A stretch of DNA of 64,000 nt from a candidate division CSSED10-310 bacterium (GTDB lineage Bacteria; CSSED10-310). The DNA is taken from positions 24,649-88,648 of the forward strand of contig JAFGEQ010000006.1 of NCBI GenBank assembly GCA_016931515.1, read 5' to 3'. The notes under the pieces are model-generated. The model did no database searches. It saw nothing but the letters and a program-made list of their open reading frames with translations, and was not told where the DNA came from. The translations under genes were made by a program, and so were the position numbers. This document shows positions 3,065 to 30,086 of the stretch, piece after piece (within the stretch, counting starts at the first letter, position 1; each line of letters starts with the position of its first letter).

Positions 3065-5344
3065 ATGAACCCGACGCATCGTTCCAGCACAGTCGATCAG
3101 CCAGCGGGAACACCTGTATCCAAACACAAATCCATCAGCCGGAGACGACGTAGAAATCTGATCCTGGGTGCTTGTGCACTGGTTATCATGCTCCCCCTCA
3201 TTTTTGCTCAATATTCGCTGGTGGAGGAAACAGCTCCAATAGTACTCGCAATTCTGAACGTCAATATCATCATCTTATTGTTTTTGATCTTCATGATTCT
3301 GCGAAATCTTATCAAGCTTTATGTCGAGCATAGTCAAAAACAAGCAGGATCCCGATTTAGAAACAAACTTGTTCTGGCATTTACAACGCTTACTTTTGTT
3401 CCTTCGCTTCTTCTGGTTTTTGCGGGATCCAATCTGATCACGTCCTCGATTAAGAGTTGGTTCGACCCCCAGGTTCAGCATTTTCTGGATGACGTGATTG
3501 ACGTCGCACGTGTCTCTCTGGATATGTACAAATCGATTTGTATCGAAACCAGTCACGATATCATTTCATCACTTCGGGTTGATTCATCCGGTGTTTATCT
3601 TAAAGAAAGTAAACTCGAAAGCTCTTCCATCGCCGAGACGATACTGGAACGATTCCCGGTCGATATAGCGCTAATTGTTGATCGAGACGCTCAAGAAATA
3701 AGTCGAGCCTCTTCTCCTGATATTCCTTCAGAGGCTCATTTAAATGTCTCCGGGCAGTTTATCAATAGAGTGTTAAATGGTGAGTCATCGAGCATGGTGT
3801 CATCGTTGGGATCAGGAGATATCATGTATTATGGCTTTGCACTTTATGAGGAAAAATCGATCACTGTGGAAGCAGCGGTCATCATCGGCATGCGAATCAG
3901 AGGTGACCTCTCCGAAAGAATTTCCAATATCAGGAGTAACTACGAGAAGTATCTTCAGCAAAAACAATCCATAAGACCTTCCCAGGGGTTGTATTTATCT
4001 ATTTTCATTATGATATCTTTGACTGTGCTTTTCGCCGCATTATGGATTTCTTTTTATTTTGCCCGTCAGATTTCATTCCCGATATCCCATCTATCACATG
4101 CTACATTGGAAGTAGCAAAAGGTAATTATGATTACCATCTTGATATACCGGCCCTTGATGAACTTGGAGATCTTGTTCGGTCCTTTAACTCAATGACCGA
4201 TGAACTCCGAAACAACCGGAATGTGATCGAGAAAACAACGTTCGCCCTCCACCAGAGAAACCGGGAAATCGAAACCCGGCGAAACGAACTTGAAGTGATT
4301 CTCAGCACTATAAAATCCGGCGTTATCGCTCTGGACGTCGACGGGTATATCCGCGTAATCAACTCAGCAGCCTGTGGATTTCTTAATTTGTCATCAAGAG
4401 AGATTATTCACAAGACATATTCAGCCGCGCTCCATCAGAGTTATCTGAAACCTTTCGTAGATATTCTGGAACGAATGTATGTCGATCGATATAAGGTTTT
4501 TCAAAACGAGATCCAGCTTGAAACGGGATCCAGGCTGTCGACTTTCTCGATCAATGTTACACCATTGTACGGTGGCAAAGAGGATTTCAATGGGGTTGTC
4601 GTCGTGATGAACGACCTGACTCAGCTTCTGAGAATTCAGCGAATTGTAGCGTGGCGGGAGGTAGCGAAACGTCTGGCGCATGAAATCAAGAATCCGTTGA
4701 CACCCATTCAATTGAACACACAGAGAATGCAAAAAAAGTTTCGAGAACAAGCCGCGGATTTCCCAACGGTTTTCGAAACATCTACTGAGAGTATAATTGA
4801 GGAGGTCTCCGGATTGCGCAGTATGTTGAACGAATTTTCACAGTTGGCCCAGATGCCGGAGGCAATTTTAACACCGGGTGATATCCATGAAACAATCTCC
4901 CAAGTAGTCGCTTTATATGCAGGCAGACAGGAAATCGAAATGGAGATGGTTTTTGCTGACGATGTGCCCCAGATTATGTTTGACAAAGCTCAAATCAAGC
5001 GAGTTTTCATAAACCTGATTGACAATGCGATCCATGCCATGAACGGTTTGGGAAAGGTCGTAATTAAAACTTCATACGACAGAATCATCGAGAAGGTCAG
5101 GATTGAAGTTATAGATACGGGCGCCGGGGTTCCCAGCCAGGAAAAAAACAAATTGTTCATGCCATATTTCTCAACTAAGCGGGACGGTTCCGGACTGGGG
5201 TTAACAATATGCAGTCGAATTATCACAGATCATGACGGCAGTATTCGCGTAACGGACAACGAACCGAAAGGAGCCCGTTTTATTATTGAGCTGCCTGTGT
5301 TATCGTCTTGTGGATCACTGTCACCTGGATCGGGAGTTGCCTGA
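3065..5344 (+). CDS. ntrY: sensor histidine kinase, NtrY-like (TM-HAMP-PAS-HisKA-HATPase)
   Basis: N-terminal TM helices, HAMP-like segment, PAS-like segment, H-box HEIKNPLTPIQL, HATPase motifs (DNAIHAM, DTGAGV, GSGLGL); ATG at 3065 preferred over TTG at 3062. Confidence 0.8.
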   Translation: MNPTHRSSTVDQPAGTPVSKHKSISRRRRRNLILGACALVIMLPLIFAQYSLVEETAPIVLAILNVNIIILLFLIFMILRNLIKLYVEHSQKQAGSRFRNKLVLAFTTLTFVPSLLLVFAGSNLITSSIKSWFDPQVQHFLDDVIDVARVSLDMYKSICIETSHDIISSLRVDSSGVYLKESKLESSSIAETILERFPVDIALIVDRDAQEISRASSPDIPSEAHLNVSGQFINRVLNGESSSMVSSLGSGDIMYYGFALYEEKSITVEAAVIIGMRIRGDLSERISNIRSNYEKYLQQKQSIRPSQGLYLSIFIMISLTVLFAALWISFYFARQISFPISHLSHATLEVAKGNYDYHLDIPALDELGDLVRSFNSMTDELRNNRNVIEKTTFALHQRNREIETRRNELEVILSTIKSGVIALDVDGYIRVINSAACGFLNLSSREIIHKTYSAALHQSYLKPFVDILERMYVDRYKVFQNEIQLETGSRLSTFSINVTPLYGGKEDFNGVVVVMNDLTQLLRIQRIVAWREVAKRLAHEIKNPLTPIQLNTQRMQKKFREQAADFPTVFETSTESIIEEVSGLRSMLNEFSQLAQMPEAILTPGDIHETISQVVALYAGRQEIEMEMVFADDVPQIMFDKAQIKRVFINLIDNAIHAMNGLGKVVIKTSYDRIIEKVRIEVIDTGAGVPSQEKNKLFMPYFSTKRDGSGLGLTICSRIITDHDGSIRVTDNEPKGARFIIELPVLSSCGSLSPGSGVA

Positions 5345-5346
5345 TT

Positions 5347-6768
5347 ATGCCCGGGGAAAAAATTCTAATAATCGATGATGAAGCTCGAGTTGTAGAAGCG
5401 ATCCGTGCTGTTCTGGAAGATGATGGATATGTTGTAATGTCTGCATCTTCCGGAGAATCAGCATTGGAAAACTTGGATCGGGATTTGCCGGACCTTGTAT
5501 TGCTTGATATCTGGCTGAAGGGAATCGATGGATTGGAGACCTTGGCGAGGATCCGCGAAACAGCTCCGGATCTGGGTGTAATTATGATTTCAGGGCACGG
5601 AACGATCGAGAGTGCCATCAAGGCGACTCGTCTGGGAGCTCTTAATTTTATAGAAAAGCCTTTATCTCTAGATAAATTGCTACTGGAAGTCCGACAAGCA
5701 ATCAAGCAGACAGCACTTGAACGGGAAAACCGGGATCTCAGAAAGCAGGTTAGCCAGCGTCACCGGATCATCGGACAGGGACGCAGCATGCAATCGATCT
5801 TAAAAAGGATTGAGGTTGCGGCGCCCAGCAATGCCCGGGTACTCATTTCCGGGGAGAGTGGTACCGGCAAAGAACTGGTAGCCCGTGAGATACACAGATC
5901 ATCAAACCGATCCACAAGAAGCTTTATTGAAGTGAATTGTGCTGCCATTCCTGAAGACCTGATAGAATCCGAGTTGTTCGGGCATGAAAAAGGCGCTTTT
6001 ACACATGCCATCAACAGAAAACGAGGAAAATTTGAACTGGCGCATGGGGGGACTCTATTTCTTGATGAAGTGGGTGACATGAGCTTAAAAACACAGGCGA
6101 AAGTACTTAGAGTTCTGGAAGAAGGGCGTATCGAGCGAGTTGGGGGCCACCAGTGTATTCCGGTGGATGTAAGGGTGATAGCTGCCAGTAACAAAAATCT
6201 ACAGCATGAAATCAGGGAGAACAGGTTTCGGGAGGACTTGTTTTACCGGTTGAATGTCATTCCTATCGATCTTCCGCCTTTAAGGGAAAGATCGGATGAT
6301 ATCCCCGATTTGATCCGGTATTTTCTAGATTTTTTCTGTTCAGAGTATGGAAAACCTTTGAAAACAATCAGTACGGATGCGATGAAAAACCTGGAATCCT
6401 ATTCCTGGCCGGGTAACATCCGGGAATTAAGAAATGAAGTTGAGAGACTGGTGATAATGACTGGATCAGTAGAAATCGGCACGGATGATCTTCGGCCTGA
6501 GCTCAGCGGGATGTCCGGCCACTCATTATCAGGACTACCCTCGTCCGGTTTGAATTTGAGGGATGCAAGAGACCAATTTGAGAGACAATACATCCTCCAA
6601 AATCTTGTGAAAACCGGTTGGAATGTGACTCAATGCGCTGATATTCTGGGAATAGAACGATCGAATCTGCACCGGAAAATGAAGCAATTGGGAATCCCGA
6701 GTTCCGGCGATTCCAGAACAAACCAGATTGGTGGGAGAGCGAGACATGTCAAACGTGGCAGCGAATAG
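5347..6768 (+). CDS. ntrX: sigma54-dependent response regulator, NtrX/NtrC family
   Basis: Receiver domain (ILIIDDE, D in LLDIWL), AAA+ sigma54-interaction domain (GESGTGKE, GAFTHA-like, ESELFGHEKGAF), C-terminal Fis-type HTH; ATG 5347 overlaps the kinase stop (ATGA... arrangement). Confidence 0.85.
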   Translation: MPGEKILIIDDEARVVEAIRAVLEDDGYVVMSASSGESALENLDRDLPDLVLLDIWLKGIDGLETLARIRETAPDLGVIMISGHGTIESAIKATRLGALNFIEKPLSLDKLLLEVRQAIKQTALERENRDLRKQVSQRHRIIGQGRSMQSILKRIEVAAPSNARVLISGESGTGKELVAREIHRSSNRSTRSFIEVNCAAIPEDLIESELFGHEKGAFTHAINRKRGKFELAHGGTLFLDEVGDMSLKTQAKVLRVLEEGRIERVGGHQCIPVDVRVIAASNKNLQHEIRENRFREDLFYRLNVIPIDLPPLRERSDDIPDLIRYFLDFFCSEYGKPLKTISTDAMKNLESYSWPGNIRELRNEVERLVIMTGSVEIGTDDLRPELSGMSGHSLSGLPSSGLNLRDARDQFERQYILQNLVKTGWNVTQCADILGIERSNLHRKMKQLGIPSSGDSRTNQIGGRARHVKRGSE

Positions 6769-7297
6769 AATCATCATGACAGCCAGGGATATTGACCGGA
6801 TACTATCCCGCTTCGCTTACGAGATTCTTGAGCGTTTTCCGGATCGGGATAACCTGGCAGTCGTAGGTATTCAGACAGGAGGAGCGCATCTTGGTCGTCG
6901 TCTGGTTCAGAAACTCGAAAAACTCGAGAAGCGCTCATTTTCATTTGGCATCCTGGACATCACTCTATACCGAGATGATCTGGCTCTAGAGAAAGACCAA
7001 CCGATCGTCAGGAAAACGGATATCTCTTTTGAATTGAATCAACGGGATATCGTTCTCATTGATGATGTTTTATATACCGGCCGAACAGTACGAGCGGCAT
7101 TGGATGCACTTATTGATTTTGGGCGACCCAGACGAATTGCACTTGCTGTGATAGTTGACCGGGGATTGCGGGAATTTCCGATCAGACCGGATTTTATCGG
7201 GAAAGAGATCCAAACAATACCTGAGGAAACCGTTCGTGTCAGGCTGACAGAAGAAGGTGAACCGGTGGACCAGGTTGTACTTTTAAAGGAGGATTAA
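6746..7297 (+). CDS. pyrR: bifunctional pyrimidine operon regulator / uracil phosphoribosyltransferase PyrR
   Basis: PRTase motif VLIDDVLYTGRT and overall PyrR-like sequence; start ATG 6746 lies inside the 3' end of ntrX. Confidence 0.85.
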   Translation: MSNVAANRIIMTARDIDRILSRFAYEILERFPDRDNLAVVGIQTGGAHLGRRLVQKLEKLEKRSFSFGILDITLYRDDLALEKDQPIVRKTDISFELNQRDIVLIDDVLYTGRTVRAALDALIDFGRPRRIALAVIVDRGLREFPIRPDFIGKEIQTIPEETVRVRLTEEGEPVDQVVLLKED

Positions 7298-7300
7298 GCA

Positions 7301-8239
7301 TTGCAGCTTCAAAGTAAGGATCTATTGGGTCTTGAAGGAGTAACGAAGAAGGAGATATCTCTTATTCTGGATACGGCTGAATCGTTCCGCGAAGTATCGG
7401 AAAGATCCATCAAAAAAGTACCCACTCTGCGCGGCCGTACGATTATCAATTTTTTTCACGAACCCAGTACGCGAACACGCATATCTTTCGAAATTGCGGC
7501 CAAGCGCCTGTCAGCGGATGGAATAAATTTTTCGACATCCGGCTCAAGTTTTTCAAAAGGTGAAACCCTGGTGGACACAGTAAAAAATCTCGAAGCGATG
7601 CAAGCGGATGTGATCGTTATGCGACATGGTATTCCGGGAGCACCGCATCTGATTGCCCGAAATCTTGATGCCGCTGTTATCAATGCGGGGGATGGCGCTC
7701 ATGAGCACCCGACCCAGGCATTATTGGACATGTTCACTATCCGACGACATTTGGGCAAATTGGATGGTCTGACGGTCGTTATAGTTGGTGATATAGCCTT
7801 CAGTCGTGTGGTCCGATCAAACATCTATGGTCTGACAACGATGGGAGCACGGGTTATCGTTGTTGGACCCCCAACGTTGATTCCCGTCGAGATCAGCCGA
7901 ATGGGGATTGAAGTATTGTATAATATCGATGAAGCAATCCCTCAAGCCGACATCATAATGATTCTCCGGATTCAGCTTGAACGCCAGGGAAAAGTGTTTT
8001 TACCATCACTCAGGGAGTATGCGAGATTGTATTCGCTGACGCCGGAACGAATGAAGATAGCCAAAAAAGATGTGCTGGTCATGCATCCCGGTCCGATAAA
8101 TAGAGGTGTTGAGATTGACCCGAGAATTGCCGATGGGGATCACTCCGTGATTTTGGAACAGGTATCCAACGGAGTAGCCGTACGGATGGCGTTGCTGTTT
8201 CTGCTTGCAGGACGAAAAGAATTCAATAAAAGTGAATAA
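7301..8239 (+). CDS. pyrB: aspartate carbamoyltransferase catalytic subunit
   Basis: STRTR carbamoyl-phosphate binding motif ([14 protein letters not shown]), HPxQ; TTG start 7301 with AAAGGAGG RBS 7 nt upstream. Confidence 0.9.
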
Positions 8240-8258
8240 TGTGTGAAAGGTGGTGGTC

Positions 8259-9545
8259 ATGCAGGATATTATTTTAAAGAATGGCAGAATTATCGATCCG
8301 ACACAGGATCTGGATGATCAAACCGATCTTCTGATTCGAGATGGGCGGATTGAGCATATCGGAATATTGAATGATGGGATTCCTGAGGGTGCGACTGTTA
8401 TTGATATTGATGGAAAGTGGTGCGTACCCGGATTGGTGGACATGCATGTCCACCTAAGGGAGCCCGGCAGGGAAGATAAGGAAACTATCCAGACAGGCAC
8501 GATGGCGGCTGTTGCCGGAGGATTTACTGCGGTTGCCTGCATGCCCAATACAAACCCTGTTAACGATTCCGCGGCTGTAACACGTTTTATCATGGAGAAA
8601 GCCCGGAGTGCACCGGCTGTGGTTTATCCGATTGCAGCAGTAACACGGGGGCTTGAAGGAATTCAATTGACAGAGATGGTTGAACTGCACGAAGCCGGGG
8701 CAGTAGCTTTTTCCGATGACGGTCATTGTATCATGAATGCCGACAATCTCAGGCGTGCCCTGGACTACGTTAAAATTTTCGGCGGTCTGATCATCGATCA
8801 CTGTGAAGACCCGGTGATATCAAAAGGAGGCGTCATGAGGGAAGGATTCATCTGTACGACCCTCGGATTCCCGCCGATTCCATCGCTTGCGGAAGAACTG
8901 ATGGTAGCCAGAGATATCCGGATTGCAGAATACACTGGCAGTGCGATTCACATCGCCCACGTTTCAAGCCGCGAGAGTGTACGACTGATCCGTGACGCAA
9001 AAAACCGGGGAATAAGAGTATCGGCCGAAGTGACTCCTCATCATTTATTTCTGACTGATGAAGCGGTCAAGACGTTTGATACGAACACCAAGATGAATCC
9101 ACCGCTTGGAACTGAAGAGGATCGAGAAATTCTAGAGGAGGCAGTAATTTCTGGCGTTATCGACTGTATCGCGACCGATCATGCACCACATACAGACACA
9201 GAAAAACAAGTAGAATACAGCTTGGCTCCAAACGGCATTATCGGATTGGAAACAGCCTTGCCGCTGGTTATGACGCGTCTAGTTCACACTCGAAAAATGA
9301 ACCCGTCGCAGATGATTCGTTCGATGAGCACCAACCCGTCGAGATTACTGGGAATCGAAGGTGGGAGTTTACTGAAGGGTGCGCCCGCCCACATCACGGT
9401 AATTGATCCGGATCGATTGTGGATGGTCGATCCGATGCGGTTCTATTCAAAATCCCAGAATACACCATTCGGCGGACTGAGTCTCAGGGGTTCATGTAAT
9501 CTGACGCTGGTTCACGGAAAAATCGCATTTCAATCCTCGAATTAG
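8259..9545 (+). CDS. pyrC: dihydroorotase
   Basis: Amidohydrolase metal-binding DMHVHLREPG and downstream HxH/D motifs; ATG 8259 chosen (track ORF begins at GTG 8250). Confidence 0.85.
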   Translation: MQDIILKNGRIIDPTQDLDDQTDLLIRDGRIEHIGILNDGIPEGATVIDIDGKWCVPGLVDMHVHLREPGREDKETIQTGTMAAVAGGFTAVACMPNTNPVNDSAAVTRFIMEKARSAPAVVYPIAAVTRGLEGIQLTEMVELHEAGAVAFSDDGHCIMNADNLRRALDYVKIFGGLIIDHCEDPVISKGGVMREGFICTTLGFPPIPSLAEELMVARDIRIAEYTGSAIHIAHVSSRESVRLIRDAKNRGIRVSAEVTPHHLFLTDEAVKTFDTNTKMNPPLGTEEDREILEEAVISGVIDCIATDHAPHTDTEKQVEYSLAPNGIIGLETALPLVMTRLVHTRKMNPSQMIRSMSTNPSRLLGIEGGSLLKGAPAHITVIDPDRLWMVDPMRFYSKSQNTPFGGLSLRGSCNLTLVHGKIAFQSSN

Positions 9546-9706
9546 ACGAGAGGTTGGATATTGGTGGAGAAGGATCTCGGTAAGTAATCGAACCCTCAAA
9601 CTGTTACCAAATACCTCATATTGGCGCATCCCAGGATAATGATGCCACGCCGGATGGAGCTTTGCATCTGGTATATTTTTTGCTTTAAGATTGGAAGACA
9701 GTTTGA

Positions 9707-10495
9707 ATGTGGACACAAGGCACGATCAGACGAGATCAAGGATTGGAGGGCGCCTTGAATTTAAAATACTCCCATGGTTTTTCTCTGGTTGAGTTACTGG
9801 CTGTCATCGGAATTTTTCTGGTCTTATCCACAATTTCGATTATTGCGTGGGACTCGTTTGGACCCCTGATGATACTGCAAGGTGCGGCTGAAGGACTCGG
9901 GGATACTCTTGAACTGTGTATGCACAAAGCTCTGGCTCAAAAAAATGAGTTTTTTGTAATGATCAACTATAGAGAGCGCTTGTATCGAACAAATGACAAT
10001 ATCACTCTCCAGTTCCCCGCCAATTCATATGTGGCAGTCAATGATGATGGCTGGTTGCCGACCAACACGAATAAGACGCGCAGATACAATCATCACTCAC
10101 GGTTTGATGGCGATAAACCGGAGTATCGGGAGGAGTATGTTCCTGATGCTGGTGATTACGCTAACAAATGGCGAGATAATAACATGATTGAGTCTCGAGA
10201 AATCTTTAAGGGACCGTTACGGATAGGACGTGGAATATTTTTTCAGCCGCCGACGGATGTCCGTGATGCCCCTGTTAGAATCGTTTTAAGCTATCGAAAA
10301 CCATTTATGTACTGGCATGGTCAGAATGTTCCCGTCAACCGTCCTGTTTACGAAGCGGAACGCCGCGAGGATGCCGCCTATTTATATTTATCGGACCATC
10401 GGTACCGACCTGGAGATGACACTAAAGATAATAAAGCACATCTTCGGGTCATTCGCATCATAGAACAAAAGGTCGATGTATATCGACCTATCTAA
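9707..10495 (+). CDS. type IV prepilin-like protein (N-terminal cleavage/methylation motif)
   Basis: Leader then G|FSLVELLAVIGIFLVL with Glu at +5 and hydrophobic helix = class III (prepilin peptidase) signal. Confidence 0.7.
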   Translation: MWTQGTIRRDQGLEGALNLKYSHGFSLVELLAVIGIFLVLSTISIIAWDSFGPLMILQGAAEGLGDTLELCMHKALAQKNEFFVMINYRERLYRTNDNITLQFPANSYVAVNDDGWLPTNTNKTRRYNHHSRFDGDKPEYREEYVPDAGDYANKWRDNNMIESREIFKGPLRIGRGIFFQPPTDVRDAPVRIVLSYRKPFMYWHGQNVPVNRPVYEAERREDAAYLYLSDHRYRPGDDTKDNKAHLRVIRIIEQKVDVYRPI

Positions 10496-10523
10496 AAATC
10501 AGAGTGCTGAAAGGGGATCGGTC

Positions 10524-13328
10524 ATGAGTCTTTGTATAAACAAAGGAAATCGTCACGCCGGCTTTTCGCTTGTCGAAATGCTGATATCTATGGTGGTTTT
10601 CAGTGTTGTCATGGGAATTATCTATTCCTTCCTCCTCCAGACAAAAAAGGACCTTTCCGAAGCGGAAGTCGAACTCGATTTAACGGATAATGCGCAATCC
10701 GCTATCAATGCGTTGCGCAAAGATCTATACCAGATAGGGATTGGCCGCGATACTGAGAAAACACAACCCCAGATATTACGCGCAGGTATGTTCGATCTGA
10801 TTTTCGTCGCTGATCTGGATCGTGAAGTCCGCTCCACCGATAAACGATACGGGAGTCCGGATCCCAATCTTCCGATGTCCTTCTCGCCTGGATCTCCGTT
10901 CTTACCAATCTATTTTTTATTCGATCCCGGTATACCAGAACTTTTTCGCTTTACAGGATGGGATCCGAGTTTGAGTTACGGTTATAACAACCTGGGTGCA
11001 GAAGTCGTCCGTTACTCGTTAGATTGCAACGGTGATAATGTAATCAGCAGTTTGGATCTGGAAGATAATATCGAGATGGACGGAGCCAGGGAACAGACGA
11101 TCAACCCGAATGATTTCTGGCTTTTCAAGGAATGGTGGGGATGCTATAACTCCTCCGGAGTCTATATCAACCAGCACTCCGGACGACATCCGGTCGCCTT
11201 CAATATAAAAGGTATGTTTTATAAACCCACTGGAGGAACACCATCGGGGACAAACAGTCGTTTCATTTACCCCGACGGGAGTTATCCGAAAATACTGTTT
11301 ACTTATTGGGGCCATTTTTGGAATTCCATTACTGATCATGATGATCCGGGAGATCCTGATTGGCCTGGTGAACCACTGGATTTATGGGGTGATTTCGGGT
11401 TGCAAAATCCGATCCAGATCAATCAACCGATAACCCCCGGCGTTGACGGCTCCAGAGACGGCGTTTTAGATATGAACGAAATCAACGAGATGATGAGCAA
11501 TCCCAATAAATCGGAAATCAATCTCCTATACCTTGCCGGTATAACTGGCCGATGTGCTGAAAGTCTTACGGGGGATGAGAATGGGAACGGTATCCCGGGT
11601 GAGTATAGGATTGACCAGTTTATTCGGCGTATCGGTGTCACTCTGGTTGTTGAGGCAGATTCTCCAAACCCCAAATCACCTAATCTTGAGCGGTCCAATA
11701 TGACTAATCCCAGTGCTCCTGGATATTACTATTACAAAGACTACGAGGTATCGATACAGATTAACCCGAGAAATCTGATCTATTCCGGATCTCCACTTGT
11801 TGATATGGGTCAGATGACACCTACGCCGATTCCGCCGACATCAACACCGCTACCCCCTACCAACACTCCTGATCCTTCAATCCCAACCAACACACCAACC
11901 AACACACACACACCGGACCCGATGGCAACACCAACAGCGACTCCTGATCAACTTGGTTTCGATAAGGATGATGGTGAAGTTGTGATCGGCGGTCTTAATT
12001 ATATTTATGGTTTATCCATCGATCGGATGGCTCCATCTGTTTCTGAAATTTGCGCATTGACCAATAGTTCGACCTATCTTGCCTTGTTCGGATATCCAGT
12101 GACCCAGGTTGAACCTGCTAATTTCTGTGATTTGCCGGGATCTTTTGATCCTTGGAATGACGTTGTCATGTCGAATAATGCGAACGGAGGTCTGTCGAAT
12201 CTGTTTTATTACAAGCATAATACTGAATCCAGCGTCAACGGATTCTCAACCCTTCATTCTACATCAGTCGGCTACGATCCATCTGACCGGATCACCTGTT
12301 TCGCAACCGGCAATATTGGACCATTTGGTTATGTTCCGGATGAATATGACGAAGTTGTCGTGGCCTATCATCGATACAATGGAGCTCCTACCGAAAAAAC
12401 CCTGATCGAAGTCATGGCACTAAACTATAACTGTGGTGATTTGATTTCAGTCAGCAATCCACCTCCCCTGTCACTCGACACCAATCGAATCATTAAAGAT
12501 ATGCTGATTGCGGATTTTGACGGTGATGGTATCGGGGAGCTTGTCACAATGACCAGTCATTTCGGCACTGAGGGTGTCTCCCAAATTCGCTATTATCCGG
12601 ATATCTTTAACCAGGGTTGGTCAACATACCATGAGTTCCCGATTTTGAATTTTGGCACGAATGTCCAATGCGCCAAGCTTGTTGCAGATACTGTCTACAC
12701 CGGAAATGCTAAACCTATAGAACCTGACCTTATCATCGTAGGAGAAAATGGACGATTTGCAGTGATTACGAATCGCCGTAGCGGTACCGTATCACCCAAT
12801 CCATTTAACACGACCATCCGATACAGTACATCAGATGCATTTGATCGTTTCTCAACAGTAACCGGTGCAGTCGTATATGACTCAAATAATTTAAGCAGTG
12901 TATATGAGCCGGTCATGGCCATCAGTGGAAATAGTGATGTATCCGATAACGTACAACTTGTACATTACCAGATGACTGATATCGCAACATCTACGATCCC
13001 GTTGGCGAATTGTTCCGGATCAATCTGGCCGACACCCGGTGAGATAATCTCAACCAAAGGAATGAGCTATGTTCCGGTATTCGGGACGGTCAATTCTGAC
13101 ACTTATCTGGTCATCCCGGTCAATGTGGGTGGTATTGATTATGCAACCTTTATAAAGAACCCTGTATTAAGCAGCGGTCCTGTATTCGATCCATCTGTCT
13201 CCTGTCAGTTGGAGCTCTACTCTGTCATTGGAGGAATCAACTGCATTACATCAACGCGGAATGAGTTATCTGGAGATCTTGGAACGATGCCGACACCCAC
13301 AGTTTTACCAGCGACACCAACGCCTTAA
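10524..13328 (+). CDS. giant type IV pilin-like protein (~935 aa) with FG-GAP-like and Ca-binding-like motifs and Pro/Thr linkers
   Basis: ATG 10524 preceded by AAAGGGGA RBS; N-terminus NKGNRHAG|FSLVEMLISMVVFSVVMGIIYSF prepilin motif; DFDGDGIGE FG-GAP-like loop; PT-rich linker near 11818-11948; C-terminal PTPTVLPATPTP. Confidence 0.65.
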   Translation: MSLCINKGNRHAGFSLVEMLISMVVFSVVMGIIYSFLLQTKKDLSEAEVELDLTDNAQSAINALRKDLYQIGIGRDTEKTQPQILRAGMFDLIFVADLDREVRSTDKRYGSPDPNLPMSFSPGSPFLPIYFLFDPGIPELFRFTGWDPSLSYGYNNLGAEVVRYSLDCNGDNVISSLDLEDNIEMDGAREQTINPNDFWLFKEWWGCYNSSGVYINQHSGRHPVAFNIKGMFYKPTGGTPSGTNSRFIYPDGSYPKILFTYWGHFWNSITDHDDPGDPDWPGEPLDLWGDFGLQNPIQINQPITPGVDGSRDGVLDMNEINEMMSNPNKSEINLLYLAGITGRCAESLTGDENGNGIPGEYRIDQFIRRIGVTLVVEADSPNPKSPNLERSNMTNPSAPGYYYYKDYEVSIQINPRNLIYSGSPLVDMGQMTPTPIPPTSTPLPPTNTPDPSIPTNTPTNTHTPDPMATPTATPDQLGFDKDDGEVVIGGLNYIYGLSIDRMAPSVSEICALTNSSTYLALFGYPVTQVEPANFCDLPGSFDPWNDVVMSNNANGGLSNLFYYKHNTESSVNGFSTLHSTSVGYDPSDRITCFATGNIGPFGYVPDEYDEVVVAYHRYNGAPTEKTLIEVMALNYNCGDLISVSNPPPLSLDTNRIIKDMLIADFDGDGIGELVTMTSHFGTEGVSQIRYYPDIFNQGWSTYHEFPILNFGTNVQCAKLVADTVYTGNAKPIEPDLIIVGENGRFAVITNRRSGTVSPNPFNTTIRYSTSDAFDRFSTVTGAVVYDSNNLSSVYEPVMAISGNSDVSDNVQLVHYQMTDIATSTIPLANCSGSIWPTPGEIISTKGMSYVPVFGTVNSDTYLVIPVNVGGIDYATFIKNPVLSSGPVFDPSVSCQLELYSVIGGINCITSTRNELSGDLGTMPTPTVLPATPTP

Positions 13329-13916: not shown

Positions 13917-16900
13917 CTATGGATGTGGATCAAAATATAGCACCGCACCTTTATTTCCGTCGCCAGTATCAACGCGTTCACCACCGGTGTGGCTCAAGAA
14001 AACGACTTCTTCATCCCCCATTTCGCCTATATCGATCCCACCCAGTGCATCGACGCCCAAGCCCGTATCATATGTGTTCTTTAATTCTCCATCTCTCGTA
14101 ATTTCCAATACAAAACCATTACCGCGACAGGCGACATACAAATGGTCATACTTCACCGAGTAAGCAATACCGATGGGGTTGTTCAAATACGCATAAGTAA
14201 AACAAACCACCGATTGAAGGCCACTGCCGTCGACAACCGACAACGTTTCAGATGTGCCGACCGGTCCAGATGGTTTCATCCTGACACGGGTTATATTTCC
14301 AGCTTCCGGATCGGTAATGAACAGGTAACCTGAGCCAGGATCAGCGTCTTCAGATAGTGGAACAAACTCGATTCCCATTGGCGTATCAACACCAGTGAAT
14401 GCCACATAGGGACCATCGTCGAGATCGATTCCATAAACCAATCCTCGATCAGAATGCGATGCGAAAATCAAGCGACTCATATAGGAGGGATCATCGGGCG
14501 CCAGACCCGCATCAACAATGCCGCTGATTCCAACCAGCCCGACCCCTGCTCCCCAGTACCCCGCATAGGTTCCGAATCCACGGGCTCCTCCGTTATCGGC
14601 ACCCAGCGTGCTGCTCTGCTGAGCAAAATCTTCCGCATGATTGTCCGTGTCGATACCATTCGGTACCCGTGCGACAGATTCGTTCGCGATGCTGTCTGCA
14701 TCACCGTTCTCCCCCGGCTCCGGCGCTCCGTTTCCATCACCGTCTCCTGCAGGATCGTCCCCGATTTCAACATCGTCAATGATAGAACTTGCTGTGTCGC
14801 GCAGAATGAAATAGCAGTCGTTATTATTAGAGCCAACTGGATTCCCAACCACCAGATAGGAACCGGGAAGGAAGTTCGTCACGCTGGCAGAGGTTGGATA
14901 AACGATTTCCGTACCACTGCCGCTGCCTATCACGTGCGTTTCAGGTGTTGTGTCGATCATTTCCAATGTCCATCCAGTCAGATCCAGCGTTTGACCCGAT
15001 GTGTTGTACAGCTCAATCCACTCATCAGATGTCGTGATAGCTCCCGAACCCGGTGTATCACTGAATGGTATTCCATCGCCACCCTCAGAATCATTCCAAT
15101 CCTGCTGGGGATCGACAACCACTTCATTGATTACTATCTTCCCGAGTCCTGTAGTGAAATTTATCTCAAAATCAGGACCGGTACTGCCGTCACAGTCTCC
15201 ATCAAGCCCATGGCCACTGGTGTCCGTGATAGCGGACGTTAATGTGACCGTATAGGTTTCCTCAGAAGCTAGCCGATCTCCGGGTTGAAATAGCACAACC
15301 GTGTTTCCGGAAGTAAACATGAAGTTACCGGTAACAGCGCCATCGGGGCCCACCATCAAAAACGACGTTGTGTTAACGGTACTGGGGAGAATCGCCTCTG
15401 TAAAATGGATCGTTACTCCCGTATTGACCGATACGTTCTGATCACCATCGGTTGGATCGCTTTCAAAAACGCATGGAGGAGTTCTATCGTCACCTCCAGT
15501 TCGGAATTCGGCAATAAATGGATCCAGCGGAAGCCCCTGTGTCTGATCCAGCGAATTGCCCGCAAGGTCCGTTACATCTGTCGTTACAGTCAATCGGTAA
15601 TCGGTATCTTCATCCAAATCAGTCTCAGGACTTAAAGAAATACTTGTATTCCCGGGATTCAGAGTAATTACTGAAAGAACATGGTCATCGGGGAATGCGA
15701 CCGGAACCAGATAGACTGAAGCGCTTGTTACTGTAGATGAATTAACCTGTTTAGAAAAATTCATGTAAATCTGAGTGTTAATACTAATTCCCGTGTCCCC
15801 CGATTCCGGATAGGATGATGTCACGTAGAGCCGGTCTCCTCCAGCAGCAACTTGTGTGCAATAACGCCCTCCCGGAAGGCCATCCCCGTCTCCGTCCAAA
15901 GTAACGCCTTGCAAATCCGTCAGTGTATCTTCAACACACACAGTATAATAACCTTCCGAAAACCCGGTTGACGCACTGAAGTTCATCTGAACACCGGAGG
16001 GCCAGGTAATGGTTCCGGATACTTGCCGATTCTGGCTGTCGACGACACTGAGGTATACGCCTGTCAGACTGGAAGGATCGATCTCCTTCGTGAAGATGAT
16101 CGTAAGCAGATCACCGGAAATACTTGCTGACGCTACTTGTGGAGGCTGCGTACTTGAGGCTCCGGTACTGAAATGACTCACGAAAGCATCCGGTAAACCA
16201 CCGGGAATCTGATCCAAAGGATTTCCCGTCAGATCCTGAACTCTGTAATTGACTTCAACCGTATAGGTAATATCAGCCTGCAGTTGTTCCCTCGGAACAA
16301 ACGTTGCCATCATCAAACCCGTATCCACATGGATGTCACCACTGATTTTATTCCCATCCGGTTCCATCACCAGGAAAGCGGTCGTGGATACAGTGGATGC
16401 TTTTACGGGCTCGGAAAAGCCGATCTCTATCAGAGTGTCTACCGATACGAAGGTTGATCCATCGGCCGGGCGCACCCAGACGACACGGGGACTGCCATAT
16501 CCAACAGTAAAAATGCTATTGAAATCATCCGGTCCCGGACTGCGCAGATCGCCATCGAGTGAAACGCCATCCTGATCCGTTATATCTTTATCCAATACTA
16601 TTTCGTAACGGGTCTTCTCAGTCAAATCACTCGAATAAACAAATTCAACTCTTTTATAATCGTTCGAAAATGAAAATGAGCCAGTAGGTGCTTTGGGATA
16701 GGGTGATTGGGGGCTATAGTCAACCTGCACTTCGAACGTTGAGGATGTGACCGTCGATGGATCGACCGGTGACGAAAATTCGACAGCAATCACCGGATGG
16801 TGCGACACACCTTCCGCACCGTCTTCCGGGGTCACGGATGTAACAATAAACCCGTAGTCAGTCATTCCAAAGATACCGGATCCAGCCGGCCCGGGAACGG

Positions 16901-17399
16901 GTTCACCCGCCTTGCCGGAGTGGCCGTTGGGTTCTTTCGTCGGATTCGGATCCGTCACTGCAATGCTTCCAAGACCCTGGTCGTCATTGGCAATCCAGAC
17001 AAACGGTCCGAGAAATGCAACATCATAAGGATTTGAAACAGCCGGTAATCCAAATTGATCCGTTAATCCGCCATGACTATAAATATCTATGTTTCCCGAA
17101 TGAGGATTTACCTGAGTAATTGTGTTCGCAAATTCACCGATTGTTCCTCGATTGGCAACCAGGAGATTGCCGACGCTGAGAACGCTGCCCTGACCGCTCC
17201 CATCGGAATCTTTCCCTGCTATAAATTCGATCCCCCATGGGAAATTCAAATTGGACGCGACAATCTCAGGTGCGACAAGAATAGTGTTTTTATCCTGATC
17301 AAAGGAATTCTCAATTTTATCTTCGCAACCAACCAAGATCATTCCCAGAGCGAGAACAAGGCATACATTTACGGTCATCCATTTCATAATCAACCTCAT
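13917..17399 (-). CDS. giant surface lipoprotein with repeated Ig-like (SbsA/Big_5-type) domains, a lamin-tail domain and beta-propeller-like termini
   Basis: Lipobox LVGC after signal peptide; repeated P..G...V.....I...FS..V....V....F.L units; LTD-like block GKIVINEVVVD...DEWIELYN...GWTLEM (approx 14700-15150); NHL/propeller-like C-terminus. Confidence 0.65.
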   Translation of the reverse strand: MRLIMKWMTVNVCLVLALGMILVGCEDKIENSFDQDKNTILVAPEIVASNLNFPWGIEFIAGKDSDGSGQGSVLSVGNLLVANRGTIGEFANTITQVNPHSGNIDIYSHGGLTDQFGLPAVSNPYDVAFLGPFVWIANDDQGLGSIAVTDPNPTKEPNGHSGKAGEPVPGPAGSGIFGMTDYGFIVTSVTPEDGAEGVSHHPVIAVEFSSPVDPSTVTSSTFEVQVDYSPQSPYPKAPTGSFSFSNDYKRVEFVYSSDLTEKTRYEIVLDKDITDQDGVSLDGDLRSPGPDDFNSIFTVGYGSPRVVWVRPADGSTFVSVDTLIEIGFSEPVKASTVSTTAFLVMEPDGNKISGDIHVDTGLMMATFVPREQLQADITYTVEVNYRVQDLTGNPLDQIPGGLPDAFVSHFSTGASSTQPPQVASASISGDLLTIIFTKEIDPSSLTGVYLSVVDSQNRQVSGTITWPSGVQMNFSASTGFSEGYYTVCVEDTLTDLQGVTLDGDGDGLPGGRYCTQVAAGGDRLYVTSSYPESGDTGISINTQIYMNFSKQVNSSTVTSASVYLVPVAFPDDHVLSVITLNPGNTSISLSPETDLDEDTDYRLTVTTDVTDLAGNSLDQTQGLPLDPFIAEFRTGGDDRTPPCVFESDPTDGDQNVSVNTGVTIHFTEAILPSTVNTTSFLMVGPDGAVTGNFMFTSGNTVVLFQPGDRLASEETYTVTLTSAITDTSGHGLDGDCDGSTGPDFEINFTTGLGKIVINEVVVDPQQDWNDSEGGDGIPFSDTPGSGAITTSDEWIELYNTSGQTLDLTGWTLEMIDTTPETHVIGSGSGTEIVYPTSASVTNFLPGSYLVVGNPVGSNNNDCYFILRDTASSIIDDVEIGDDPAGDGDGNGAPEPGENGDADSIANESVARVPNGIDTDNHAEDFAQQSSTLGADNGGARGFGTYAGYWGAGVGLVGISGIVDAGLAPDDPSYMSRLIFASHSDRGLVYGIDLDDGPYVAFTGVDTPMGIEFVPLSEDADPGSGYLFITDPEAGNITRVRMKPSGPVGTSETLSVVDGSGLQSVVCFTYAYLNNPIGIAYSVKYDHLYVACRGNGFVLEITRDGELKNTYDTGLGVDALGGIDIGEMGDEEVVFLSHTGGERVDTGDGNKGAVLYFDPHP

Positions 17400-18331
17400 T
17401 CCACAGCGGCCATTGCTGCTGTTTCCCTGGAGCGGGCAAGGGCTTCAGAAAAAAAGCCTCCTGTCAGACCATCTATTGCGGCTGTCAATTCCTGAATCTG
17501 TAATTCTCTTTTTACCTTGACAGTAATTGATACTTCCGGTTGGAGGATCATCTCTACCTGCAGTGCGCGACGGTCATAATACAATTCTGTCACATCCTCG
17601 ATCACACTCTGCCTAAATTTCACTTGTTTCTCGGTTTCCGAGCTCACTCTCAAAATATCATTGCTGAAGCAGTAATCCTGGAGTTTCCATCTGAACCTCA
17701 ACTGATAATCGAAATCATCATCGGTGCCCCGCTTCCAGGTTTCCTTGTCCGGACCGACCGTCGTGGTTCCTCCTGATATGCTGATCGTATTCGTACGCGT
17801 ATAATCTCTGTCATCGTCCGTATCGTGTCCGAGAGTGAATTGAACGGAATCGGGCCAAAGTCCTTTCTCCTTCGCCTTCTGCCGCCACTGGGCAAACCGT
17901 TCGCCATCAATTTCAGCAAAGCGGATTGCAGCTATCTGTACATCGCGGATGGATGGTTCCAGATCGAAAGAAGCGAGAATTTCATCAACCGATGGCAGGG
18001 GTGTAGCAGTTGGTTGGGATTCTTCCGGCACATCTTGCTTTGATATAACATCCACAACAGGATCGGGATCGGATAGGGAGATAAGATCCTTCAATCTTTC
18101 CAGTGTCTTATCGCCTATTTTAGGTACATTACCGAGTTCATCCAAGGACTGAAATGGTCCATTGGTGTTGCGATAATCGATGATCAATTGCGCCAGTCCC
18201 GGACCTATGCCCGGTAATGTCTGCAATTCCATGTTCGTTGCGGTGTTGATATTCACCGGTGTGCTATCCAGTGCCTGACAAGCCGCTGCAACAACCAATA
18301 AATATGCAATCGAACTCAGTAGCTTTTTCAT
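17396..18331 (-). CDS. ComEA-like helix-hairpin-helix protein fused to a C-terminal domain of unknown function
   Basis: Signal peptide, then VNINTATNMELQTLPGIGPGLAQLIIDYRNTNGPFQSLDELGNVPKIGDKTLERL (ComEA HhH signature), then ~200 aa unknown; 4-bp overlap with downstream gene. Confidence 0.6.
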   Translation of the reverse strand: MKKLLSSIAYLLVVAAACQALDSTPVNINTATNMELQTLPGIGPGLAQLIIDYRNTNGPFQSLDELGNVPKIGDKTLERLKDLISLSDPDPVVDVISKQDVPEESQPTATPLPSVDEILASFDLEPSIRDVQIAAIRFAEIDGERFAQWRQKAKEKGLWPDSVQFTLGHDTDDDRDYTRTNTISISGGTTTVGPDKETWKRGTDDDFDYQLRFRWKLQDYCFSNDILRVSSETEKQVKFRQSVIEDVTELYYDRRALQVEMILQPEVSITVKVKRELQIQELTAAIDGLTGGFFSEALARSRETAAMAAVE

Positions 18332-18354
18332 TTTTCTTCTCTCCTTAACACGCT

Positions 18355-20175
18355 TCAGTATCGCAGTCCCTTCTGGAACAGAGTGTCAAATTGAAAACCG
18401 GTTAACGCATTGATCTGCGCCTCTATCTCTTGTATATTCAGAACCATATCAATCGTACGACCCGGATTGCCGGACGTGCTTAACTCCATGTACAACCGCC
18501 CCAGTTTGTTATACTTATCTCGAATATCCACCAACATTTTGTTCCGACGTCGAACCTCGCTTCTCAATCGTTTCGACATCGATACATCACTCCGGTCAAA
18601 ACAATAAAAGCGAGGACTCCACGAGAGACTCAATCTCACATCAAAGGGATCATTCTGCCAAAGATCATATCTTTCGTTCACCGGTCCAGTGTAGGCTTTT
18701 CCACCGGATATCCAGACTTCGGGATTGCGGGTGTAATTTGTTCTCCGAATTGCCATTGAGGTGAGACAAAACTCGACTTTGGGAAACCAAATCCTGTTGA
18801 GTGACCCGTTATACCAGTTCCGATCCCGAGCAATATCTATTTGTGCATGACGCATCGAAGCCCTGATTACGTCATTCAGGGTCGGATATTCATCAGGCAG
18901 AAAAGTCGCGATCATCGGGTCGAAAGACATGCCCGTTTGATCAGAGAGCATAAAAATGCCGGTCGCTGTTGCAATCCATATCTCTTCCGGACGCGTTGGA
19001 TTCAGCGCCAGTTCACGCACGTTATACTCAGATAAACCCGGATTATGGAATTGACCTTCTCCCGTTAGTGAGTTCCAAAAATACAATCCCCTGTTCGTTG
19101 CAAGAATTGTCGTGTTCAATGAAACGAGAAGATCCTGGATTCTTACTCCACTGATCTCTTCCTCCGATACCTCTGAGAATTCATGATCCTTTGTGATCCG
19201 ATACAAACCGGTTGGACCCCCAAGATATATCTCATTCTGTGACGAGAGATTGATCATCTGTGCCTGAATGGGTGGCTGCAGTACTCTTATATTCTCCAAA
19301 ACGGCGTGGTTTAAACTGGCAATAATGACACTGCTTTCCGTAATGGCGACAATGACACGTCCGTTTATTCGATCCGTCTCCAGATCGAGCATCCGTCCCT
19401 GATCCAAAACACCCTCAACAACATCGAATGTTAATCCATGATCGTTCGATATAAGCAATTTTCCATTCTGAAGGATCAGAACATCTCCTTCAGGTGCAAT
19501 CACACAGACCCGAGTGATCCCTGTGTTCGCAGGTCCTGCGTTAGCCGGCAACTCCTCCCAACGATGCCCCGAATCCATCGATCGATATAATCCTCGATCC
19601 GTCACCAGATACGCATACCTCGGATCCGTGGAGTCCCAGCGGACCTGGCGGATCACAACCTGTATTTCTTCAATAAAATCCGGATCCTCATCACCAATAT
19701 CCACTTCCTCATCAGTGTCGGTGTCAGGTTCCTCTAAAAGACCCAGATCAATCAGTCTTTCCCTGAGTTCCTCATCCGACAGATCATCAATCTCCTCCTC
19801 CTCGTCGAGTACTCCCCTGTAATACAAATCGTCGACATCATAATCGTCCCGATCGAAATTCGTGGAGATATCTGATTCCTGGTCATCCTGATCAGGTTCT
19901 TCAATGTAATCTTCCTCATCATCAACAAAAGAGCCGGTACGAAACACTGCCCGCCAGGATCGTCCATTGTTTTCAGACAAGTAAACAGTTCTTTCTGTTG
20001 CACATAATATATGCCGACCCGAGTCATCCAGATCAATAGAAATCAAATTCAAATCAAGCATTCCGCCCGATTGATCGATCCATTTTCTCTGGAGAAACTC
20101 CGGTTCAAGTCCAGAAAAAGCAGATGCTTTCAGGAATAAAACAAACAAACCGATGAGGAATTGAGTCCGGATCAC
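18355..20175 (-). CDS. secreted BNR/Asp-box repeat protein with a long acidic insertion
   Basis: Signal peptide MIRTQFLIGLFVLFLKASA (GTG start); Asp-box-like SENNGRSW, SMDSGHRW, SNDHGLTF; ~90-aa D/E-rich segment. Confidence 0.5.
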   Translation of the reverse strand: MIRTQFLIGLFVLFLKASAFSGLEPEFLQRKWIDQSGGMLDLNLISIDLDDSGRHILCATERTVYLSENNGRSWRAVFRTGSFVDDEEDYIEEPDQDDQESDISTNFDRDDYDVDDLYYRGVLDEEEEIDDLSDEELRERLIDLGLLEEPDTDTDEEVDIGDEDPDFIEEIQVVIRQVRWDSTDPRYAYLVTDRGLYRSMDSGHRWEELPANAGPANTGITRVCVIAPEGDVLILQNGKLLISNDHGLTFDVVEGVLDQGRMLDLETDRINGRVIVAITESSVIIASLNHAVLENIRVLQPPIQAQMINLSSQNEIYLGGPTGLYRITKDHEFSEVSEEEISGVRIQDLLVSLNTTILATNRGLYFWNSLTGEGQFHNPGLSEYNVRELALNPTRPEEIWIATATGIFMLSDQTGMSFDPMIATFLPDEYPTLNDVIRASMRHAQIDIARDRNWYNGSLNRIWFPKVEFCLTSMAIRRTNYTRNPEVWISGGKAYTGPVNERYDLWQNDPFDVRLSLSWSPRFYCFDRSDVSMSKRLRSEVRRRNKMLVDIRDKYNKLGRLYMELSTSGNPGRTIDMVLNIQEIEAQINALTGFQFDTLFQKGLRY

Positions 20176-20265: not shown

Positions 20266-20577
20266 TTAACAAATGCGTTTCACTTTGAAACAGTTCTCCA
20301 AAACCCATTCGATAATCATTTTGAGTTCCTCATGGGAGGAGATTCCGAAATGAGTATTAAAAATGACTTCTTCGAGTTCTTGGACAATTATTTCGTACAG
20401 TTTTAACACAGGTTCATCTATCAGAGAATATTCGCTGAAGGAGATATATGTCATCTGCTGGTCACTGATTCGTTTCAGAGCAAGCAAGGCATAAGCACCA
20501 AGATTCTCCCGCCTGTAATCGGCAATAAGACAAACAATCCGGGTTTTCAGCTCACCCAAATCCTCAGTCATAGACAA
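20266..20577 (-). CDS. hypothetical protein (103 aa)
   Basis: ORF whose start overlaps the 3' end of the upstream nucleotidyltransferase gene by 10 nt; no motif recognised. Confidence 0.35.
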   Translation of the reverse strand: MSMTEDLGELKTRIVCLIADYRRENLGAYALLALKRISDQQMTYISFSEYSLIDEPVLKLYEIIVQELEEVIFNTHFGISSHEELKMIIEWVLENCFKVKRIC

Positions 20578-29379: not shown

Positions 29380-29739
29380 TTGGCGACTCGTTGGACACTA
29401 TCTCTCGTAGCTTTTGTAATCATGATTTCATTACCATCGATCCTTTGGAACGCACCATCACCTATCGATCTTAATCAAGCGACTCAAACACAGTTAGAAC
29501 TAATTCCTGGGATCGGACCCGCGACTGCGTCTCGGATTATTCTGGAACGAAACCGGCGAGGAGGATTCCGGACTGTGAATGATTTGCTGAAGATTCGGGG
29601 AATCGGTCGAAAGACTCTGAGAAAAATTGAGAAATATCTGATCATTGAGAGGAATAATCTTCCGGACGTCAAGCCGGAGGTTGTAGATCAGGAAGTAACA
29701 ACGGGAAAGTATCAACCATTTAAAAGGAGATCGTTATGA
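29380..29739 (+). CDS. comEA: ComEA-family helix-hairpin-helix DNA-binding protein
   Basis: Signal/TM anchor then LNQATQTQLELIPGIGPATASRIILERNRRGGFRTVNDLLKIRGIGRKTLRKI; TTG start. Confidence 0.75.
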   Translation: MATRWTLSLVAFVIMISLPSILWNAPSPIDLNQATQTQLELIPGIGPATASRIILERNRRGGFRTVNDLLKIRGIGRKTLRKIEKYLIIERNNLPDVKPEVVDQEVTTGKYQPFKRRSL

Positions 29740-30086
29740 TAAATTCAGTCACAATTATAGGGCGACTCGGTCAGGATCCGGAACTGCGAACGACGGAGAA
29801 TGGAACGAGCATGGTCAATTTCAGTCTGGCGCACAATGAGATACGCCTGGTTAACGGCAACCGGGAAACAACACCACACTGGTTTAAATGCATCGCATTC
29901 GGATCACTTGCTCAACTATGCGTCGAATACCTTCACAAGGGATCCCGGATCGGTGTTTCAGGAAGCTTGAAGCAGCGAAATTGGGAAGCTGATGATGGTA
30001 ACAAGCGAAGTTTGGTAGAAATCCTTGTGAAGGACATCGAATTCCTTTCTTCGAATCGCAGCAACGGCACTGATGATGAAAGCTGA
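29736..30086 (+). CDS. ssb: single-stranded DNA-binding protein
   Basis: OB-fold SSB N-terminus MINSVTIIGRLGQDPELRTTENGTSMVNFSLA; short (116 aa) with acidic C-terminal tail DDES; ATGA overlap with comEA. Confidence 0.8.
   Translation: MINSVTIIGRLGQDPELRTTENGTSMVNFSLAHNEIRLVNGNRETTPHWFKCIAFGSLAQLCVEYLHKGSRIGVSGSLKQRNWEADDGNKRSLVEILVKDIEFLSSNRSNGTDDES

Follow-up and report, generated by a model that had tools for sequence, protein, structure and literature searches.

A C-terminal module shared by neighbouring ComEA-like and BNR-like proteins of a CSSED10-310 bacterium resembles a single TolC-type repeat and may act as an oligomeric outer-membrane anchor

Why would two neighbouring genes, encoding proteins that have little else in common, end in the same short motif? 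The question is raised by a window of 64,000 nucleotides (contig JAFGEQ010000006.1 of GenBank assembly GCA_016931515.1, positions 24,649 to 88,648 of the forward strand) from a metagenome-assembled genome (MAG) of candidate division CSSED10-310, in which three genes lie co-directionally on the minus strand. The first encodes a 606-residue, apparently exported protein resembling BNR/Asp-box beta-propellers and ending in a C-terminal module (18355-20175; MBN1878906.1, annotated as 'hypothetical'). The second, whose start codon follows the BNR stop codon by 23 nt, encodes a 311-residue ComEA-like protein (17396-18331; MBN1878905.1) composed of a putative signal peptide, a helix-hairpin-helix (HhH) DNA-binding domain, a Pro/Thr-rich linker and a C-terminal module, and the third encodes a giant lipoprotein of 1160 residues (13917-17399). 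An earlier note on this DNA had pointed out that the first two proteins share the motif FD-x2-L-x3-W-x4-YCF. Both copies were recovered on the minus strand, as DDDFDYQLRFRWKLQDYCFSND in the ComEA-like protein (residues 204-225; 17657-17722) and as NDPFDVRLSLSWSPRFYCFDRSD in the BNR-like protein (residues 508-530; 18586-18654), and the six-frame translation of the whole window contained exactly these two occurrences. The peptides had been read correctly, with positions off by ~5-10 nt; the distance from the C-terminus, given as 90-100 residues, required correction, the motif actually ending 86 residues before the end of the ComEA-like protein and 76 residues before that of the BNR-like protein.

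Upon alignment by BLASTP, residues 114-294 of the ComEA-like protein and 417-596 of the BNR-like protein proved to be 30% identical over 183 residues (E=3e-20). The motif is thus part of a homologous C-terminal domain of ~185 residues, hereafter the module, of which it is the most conserved strand, and on the strength of this alignment it is practically beyond doubt that the two tails represent one shared domain. The copy in the ComEA-like protein (residues 114-311; 17399-17992, minus strand) is consensus-like and referred to as A-type; it is predicted to form a single TolC/OEP-like repeat, in which DDDFDYQLRFRWKLQDYCFSND occupies module residues 91-112. The copy in the BNR-like protein (residues 417-606; 18358-18927, minus strand) is divergent, referred to as B-type, and was matched by a hidden Markov model of the module with an E-value of 7e-35; here, NDPFDVRLSLSWSPRFYCFDRSD covers beta-strand 2 and the strand-to-helix turn. 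As previously proposed, the lipoprotein is devoid of the module, a profile search of all open reading frames (ORFs) of the window matching only the ComEA-like and BNR-like proteins. The sharing of a module by two otherwise unrelated secreted proteins was similarly borne out, the module being kept in the orthologs of both at syntenic loci, from which the BNR orthologs were read. The YCF triplet itself varies, the BNR orthologs replacing it by LIAF, LSLF, AIF, KIA or LGF, and no co-variation of its Cys between the partner proteins was found by eye. The positions conserved throughout the family are W102 (99%), hydrophobic residues at 98, 100, 104, 107 and 108, and W/F at 109, while P13, P47, G80-P81, W102, L144, A171 and T177-G178 were invariant across both protein types in the alignment.

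When 1.84 billion representatives were searched exhaustively with a profile of the module, 2,169 cluster representatives matched at E<=1e-3, with 1,385 of them passing E<=1e-10. In all 161 full-length matches, the module ended 0-26 residues from the C-terminus. The N-terminal partners fell into BNR/Sortilin/Ycf48-like propellers (~500-560 residues), which made up the majority, and ComEA HhH proteins (~280-330 residues); a third, common architecture consisted of a signal peptide and the module only (~200-225 residues). Sortilin-Vps10 was matched by 48 of 114 module-bearing relatives (best E 7e-24) and PSII_BNR by 25 of them. The module is a widespread C-terminal modular unit found on different N-terminal domains. 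A scan of species-representative genomes yielded 394 confirmed module loci, the top 80 of which belonged mostly to Candidatus Omnitrophota, and otherwise to Nitrospirota/Thermodesulfovibrionia and a small number of other MAGs. No model in Pfam or NCBIfam accounts for the module, sequence searches of the PDB with a single sequence and two profiles returned nothing meaningful for it, and our literature search found no description of it or of any single-repeat outer-membrane factor (OMF). With more than 2,000 sequence clusters, it is an uncatalogued domain and a candidate for the domain databases, and its inclusion there would assign the C-terminal regions of many 'hypothetical' proteins to a domain. 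In one family representative of 740 residues (P0049), the module and a propeller share one chain with a lamin-tail domain (LTD) and a PEP-CTERM motif, an architecture that connects the module family with the LTD theme seen in the neighbouring lipoprotein.

The fold of the module was predicted with AlphaFold2. A model from an 11-row alignment was discarded for its pLDDT (predicted local distance difference test) of 45.6, and a 150-row alignment was used instead, yielding a pLDDT of 94.3 and a pTM (predicted template-modelling score) of 0.73. In this model, helices at module residues 15-25 and 30-45 lead into a long beta-hairpin (residues 49-101; 17690-17848, minus strand) whose strands, each of 19 residues, span 49-67 and 83-101 and are separated by a small insert at the distal end. 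A 40-residue helix (111-150) comes next, followed by helices 156-177 and 180-197, in agreement with the helix-prone tail noted earlier behind the motif. The hairpin is amphipathic near the helices, where column statistics revealed alternating hydrophobic positions (50/52/54 and 94/96/98/100/102/104) and where W96, W102 and W/F109 supply aromatic residues, and it is Asp-rich distally, with a conserved G-P-D turn (G-P-D-D). Since an isolated 19-residue hairpin is expected to be unstable as a monomer, we infer that it assembles into a barrel or a collar. A single long beta-hairpin per chain is likewise contributed by alpha-hemolysin, by the stems of anthrax protective antigen (PA) and CDTb, and by MspA; these, however, are toxins or porins lacking a periplasmic helical domain, and bear no sequence relationship to the module.

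Three lines of comparison point to the repeat of TolC-type OMFs. In a Foldseek search of the PDB, in which no individual match was significant (best E 0.034), ranks 1, 2, 3, 5, 8, 9, 11 and 12 were occupied by OprM, OprN, TolC and ST50 over ~200-213 columns; ranks 17 and 19-21 were also TolC-family structures, and OprJ-type proteins and VceC were among the TolC-family matches overall. The remaining matches were long-hairpin pore formers, phage portals and FliF, and the hairpin alone retrieved, among others, the CDTb and PA stems. Secondly, of 95 module-only sequences, 29 matched the Pfam family OEP (PF02321) below threshold (best E 1.9e-4) and 3 matched the runner-up family, with module residues ~34-104 collinear with OEP profile positions 24-78, the helix-to-hairpin part. 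Among ten relatives scanned closely, the top score of 18.8 bits (E 1.5e-3) fell short of the curated OEP cutoff (22 bits), and the two module proteins of the window gave no Pfam OEP match. Thirdly, in its two best alternative alignments, hhalign placed module residues 7-179 on repeat 1 (P=0.0033) and residues 4-181 on repeat 2 (P=0.038) of a profile built from 10 OMF sequences, the HH probability of the match being only ~10%. The score of 29.0 compared with 13.5 for the reversed alignment, with 13.6±2.3 (maximum 19.6) for column shuffles (n=110) and with 15.3±3.0 (maximum 26.0) for block shuffles (n=70), so that 0 of 180 shuffles in total reached the observed value. Comparisons by hhalign with the single sequences of E. 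coli TolC or CusC were not significant; in the best local matches, the invariant P47 fell on the 'LLPxL' motif where helix passes into strand, both in the two TolC repeats and in CusC. From these comparisons, homology of the module to the OMF repeat appears likely, and we hold with fair confidence that it is TolC-like and single-repeat, whether by fold or by descent. It is best described as a single, shortened and highly diverged OEP/TolC-type repeat, and its relatives as a large family, so far uncatalogued, of TolC-like C-terminal modules with one repeat each.

The likeness to TolC-family OMFs (TolC, OprM, CusC, VceC) extends from a helix, a conserved Pro and a two-stranded hairpin with an amphipathic base to a hydrophobic turn and a long antiparallel helical pair, the module ending in an 'ALTGG'-type motif. 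OMF protomers, in contrast, are internal duplications of the TolC-type repeat with four strands per chain (PMC8277102), whereas each module chain carries one repeat with far shorter helices (40 residues), as a C-terminal appendage of periplasmic domains and with no adaptor or transporter partners nearby. The oligomer implied for the module would also comprise six or more chains rather than three, and all matches lie below the curated family threshold. Formally, the module is not an OMF, given its single repeat, its score below the cutoff and its lack of adaptor or transporter context.

How might such a module work? We propose that the ~185-residue domain is a highly diverged single copy of the repeat present twice in TolC-type OMFs, running from a helix through a two-stranded beta-hairpin to a long antiparallel helical hairpin. 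Because one hairpin cannot close a barrel alone, several modules must assemble; six, to take an illustrative copy number, would give the 12-stranded barrel of TolC. The outer membrane would be spanned by the amphipathic bases of the hairpins, forming a small barrel. The helices and the N-terminal domain, be it the ComEA HhH domain or the BNR propeller, would be left on the periplasmic side, because both ends of the hairpin are on the helix-bearing side, as in TolC. The ComEA DNA-binding domains and the propeller would thereby sit at the periplasmic face of the outer membrane. On balance, we lean towards this TolC-like single-repeat module, acting as an oligomeric outer-membrane anchor of both neighbours, as the best explanation overall. 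Of the functions suggested in the earlier note for the shared domain, namely anchoring, sorting or partner binding, the first and the last are favoured by the fold, the OEP similarity and the gene adjacency, and sorting is not. If the proposal is true, the module would represent a new way to build or anchor outer-membrane complexes. To our knowledge, every TolC-type channel characterised so far is a trimer whose chain is internally duplicated, and the module would then offer a living model of the state of TolC before duplication.

The gene pair was next considered in its genomic context. Close homologs of the ComEA-like protein with its module formed 15 clusters, and the loci of six such clusters shared the order GlnD-like gene, small ORF, BNR (~610 residues) and ComEA (~310 residues), followed by the giant Big_5/LTD lipoprotein, an adenosine kinase-like gene and two convergent pseudopilin-like genes. 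In the closest relative (L007, ComEA 79% identical), numerous small ORFs stand in place of intact GlnD-like and BNR genes (4873-9976), reflecting either a frameshift-rich assembly or pseudogenisation. The pair, defined as a propeller bearing a divergent module and, directly behind it on that strand, a ComEA protein with the module or a bare module, is found in the CSSED10-310 loci and recurs in several lineages. One locus (L094) couples a 614-residue protein bearing the module and no Pfam match with a ComEA-module protein, another (L095) a propeller with a bare module, and the pair was present in 10 (L098-L105, L109 and L115) of the 38 metagenome loci that short-type modules had retrieved. In these metagenome pairs, the upstream partners were BNR/Sortilin propellers and the downstream ones HhH proteins or bare modules. 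Upon clustering by score, the downstream A-type modules grouped with the mainstream of the family and the upstream B-type modules were divergent outliers, a pattern that fits the co-assembly of two specialised subunits and does not prove it. The adjacency of the genes and the strong divergence of one module copy thus suggest that the two proteins may co-assemble into a hetero-oligomer, which we advance tentatively and with less conviction than the anchor itself. TolC offers an analogy in its two non-identical repeats, to which the proposed A-type and B-type subunits would correspond.

Could the assembly serve DNA uptake? The ComEA-like protein matched HHH_3 at 75.9 bits (cutoff 27) and TIGR00426 at 62.2 bits (cutoff 53.1) through its HhH domain (residues 24-85; 18077-18262, minus strand); the full-length comEA model TIGR01259 was not matched (75.8 bits against a cutoff of 152), the HhH part alone aligning. 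Its hydrophobic N-terminus, MKKLLSSIAYLLVVAAACQA, was read by eye as a signal sequence. In its putative N-terminal signal sequence and its HhH domain scoring above curated cutoffs, the protein is like ComEA, and like Gram-positive ComEA, whose oligomerisation is needed for transformation (PMC9747964), it has an extra domain, here predicted to drive oligomerisation. Unlike in Gram-positive ComEA, this extra domain is C-terminal, TolC-like and unrelated to the Gram-positive oligomerisation domain. In diderm bacteria, ComEA is a periplasmic DNA receptor (PMC3879209). Taken together, the periplasmic location in diderms and the need for oligomerisation in Gram-positives make a multimeric ComEA at the outer membrane a plausible DNA-capture device. 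The complex could plausibly act in DNA uptake, or else have a surface role, together with the co-transcribed giant LTD lipoprotein; we regard the DNA-uptake role as possible but doubtful. The proposed anchor, if true, would give a first hint of how ComEA is placed at the outer membrane in several uncultured phyla (CSSED10-310, Omnitrophota and Nitrospirota). A bolder version, which we consider a long shot, has A-type (ComEA) and B-type (propeller) modules form an A3B3 hetero-hexamer with a 12-stranded channel, serving as a secretin-independent DNA-uptake port or ratchet in CSSED10-310 and related uncultured phyla; the module would then be a free-standing, un-duplicated relative of TolC with ComEA domains at the periplasmic mouth of the channel.

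Several observations weigh against the proposed anchor and its extensions. The long helix, at 40 residues, is much shorter than that of TolC, and the presence of three helical segments in the module indicates that its helical geometry is not identical to TolC's. In strand 1, clear hydrophobic alternation is confined to three positions, and the far part of the hairpin is strongly acidic. A Pfam scan of window ORFs, mostly of at least 140-160 residues, and of related loci with called genes detected no HlyD, RND, ABC or MFS genes, nor were OMF genes found in the loci retrieved. The top 80 Omnitrophota/Nitrospirota loci carry a single module gene, of the propeller type, within ±6 kb, so that a heteromer is not general, and B-type modules form no clear clade in the score clustering, which resolved no ancient A/B split. 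Finally, the role in DNA uptake is read solely from the ComEA domain and the gene context.

Other explanations for the module must be weighed against the outer-membrane anchor. The best of them, to which we would give a minor but real chance, makes the module a soluble periplasmic oligomerisation domain, a ring or beta-collar like the FliF collar or the clip/stem of phage portals, that multimerises ComEA and the propeller without insertion into the outer membrane. In favour of such a ring are the weakness of the individual TolC matches, the acidic distal hairpin and the portals and FliF among the Foldseek matches; it fits poorly with the full-length collinear similarity to both OEP repeats, above all shuffles, with OEP being by far the commonest Pfam match, and with the conserved aromatics and alternating hydrophobics at the base of the hairpin.

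A second, improbable alternative casts the module as an autotransporter-like C-terminal translocator, through whose barrel ComEA or the propeller would be threaded for display on the cell surface. Type Vc trimeric autotransporter anchors do resemble what is proposed here in being oligomerising C-terminal modules that form one barrel from few strands per chain behind a variable N-terminal domain, or passenger, and the giant lipoprotein next door has surface-type Ig-like domains. The type Vc anchors, however, place four strands of each chain at its extreme C-terminal end and export their passenger, whereas the module has two strands and then ~95 helical residues, the end of its chain not being a beta-strand. 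Both ends of the hairpin are, moreover, on the helix-bearing side, as in TolC, no autotransporter family was matched in Pfam or NCBIfam, and the known diderm ComEA proteins work in the periplasm (PMC3879209).

Very improbable, and rejected, is the reading of the module as a sorting tag that a secretion or attachment system of its own would recognise and perhaps cleave off, in the style of the C-terminal domains of the type IX secretion system (T9SS), PEP-CTERM or LPXTG. Its strictly C-terminal position on diverse exported proteins would suit a tag, but its 185 mostly helical residues, folded into a helical hairpin plus beta-hairpin, are unlike any known tag and are matched by no tag model; the surrounding genes include no conserved sortase, exosortase or T9SS components, and the common proteins consisting of a signal peptide and the module only would make no sense for a tag. 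Chance or low-complexity coincidence, which has nothing in its favour beyond the shortness of the motif first reported, is ruled out by the E-value of 3e-20 over 183 residues and by a profile that retrieves both proteins and thousands of relatives.

Outside the module, the BNR-like protein matched Sortilin-Vps10/BNR below threshold (27.3 bits against a cutoff of 33) and contains Asp-box-like motifs read by eye (SENNGRSW, SMDSGHRW and SNDHGLTF). Signal peptides, also read by eye, suggest that both the BNR-like and the ComEA-like proteins are exported. The propeller region of the former harbors a hyper-acidic insert of ~90 residues (19660-19929, minus strand, read from the translation; DDEEDY...DEDPDF), probably disordered, that is kept in the CSSED10-310 orthologs and in the partner protein at L094; DNA mimicry and cation binding are possibilities for its role.

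The lipoprotein gene (13917-17399, minus strand) is the conserved third gene of the cluster, kept in all syntenic loci. Its ATG overlaps the stop codon of the ComEA-like gene (ATGA), through which the two are translationally coupled, and its product carries a lipobox (LVGC), five Big_5 domains, an LTD and NHL-like ends. On the other side of the pair, a small ORF of 103 residues (20266-20577, minus strand) overlaps the stop codon of the GlnD-like gene; it has no Pfam match and is conserved, at 85-108 residues, ahead of the BNR gene at several of the syntenic loci. Converging on the operon are two plus-strand genes (9707-10495 and 10476-13328) whose products, of 262 and 950 residues, bear N-terminal prepilin-type methylation motifs, the latter being unusually large for a pseudopilin. 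N_methyl pseudopilin genes occur in most related loci (L001-L010), and the second gene has an N_methyl match only in the window. A second, plain ComEA of 119 residues without the module is encoded at 29380-29739 (plus strand), directly followed by SSB (pair 29380-30086), with UvrD downstream on the opposite strand. The LTD lipoprotein, the convergent pseudopilin-like genes and the plain ComEA-SSB pair are all compatible with a DNA-uptake or surface theme, and none of them is evidence for it. Elsewhere in the window, two overlapping large ORFs on the plus strand (54650-57844 and 57841-61167; 1064 and 1108 residues) had zero Pfam matches, and a membrane H+-pyrophosphatase ORF (48090-50396, plus strand) presents an unusual fusion to an N-terminal PKD domain (residues 36-97, E 7.7e-11).

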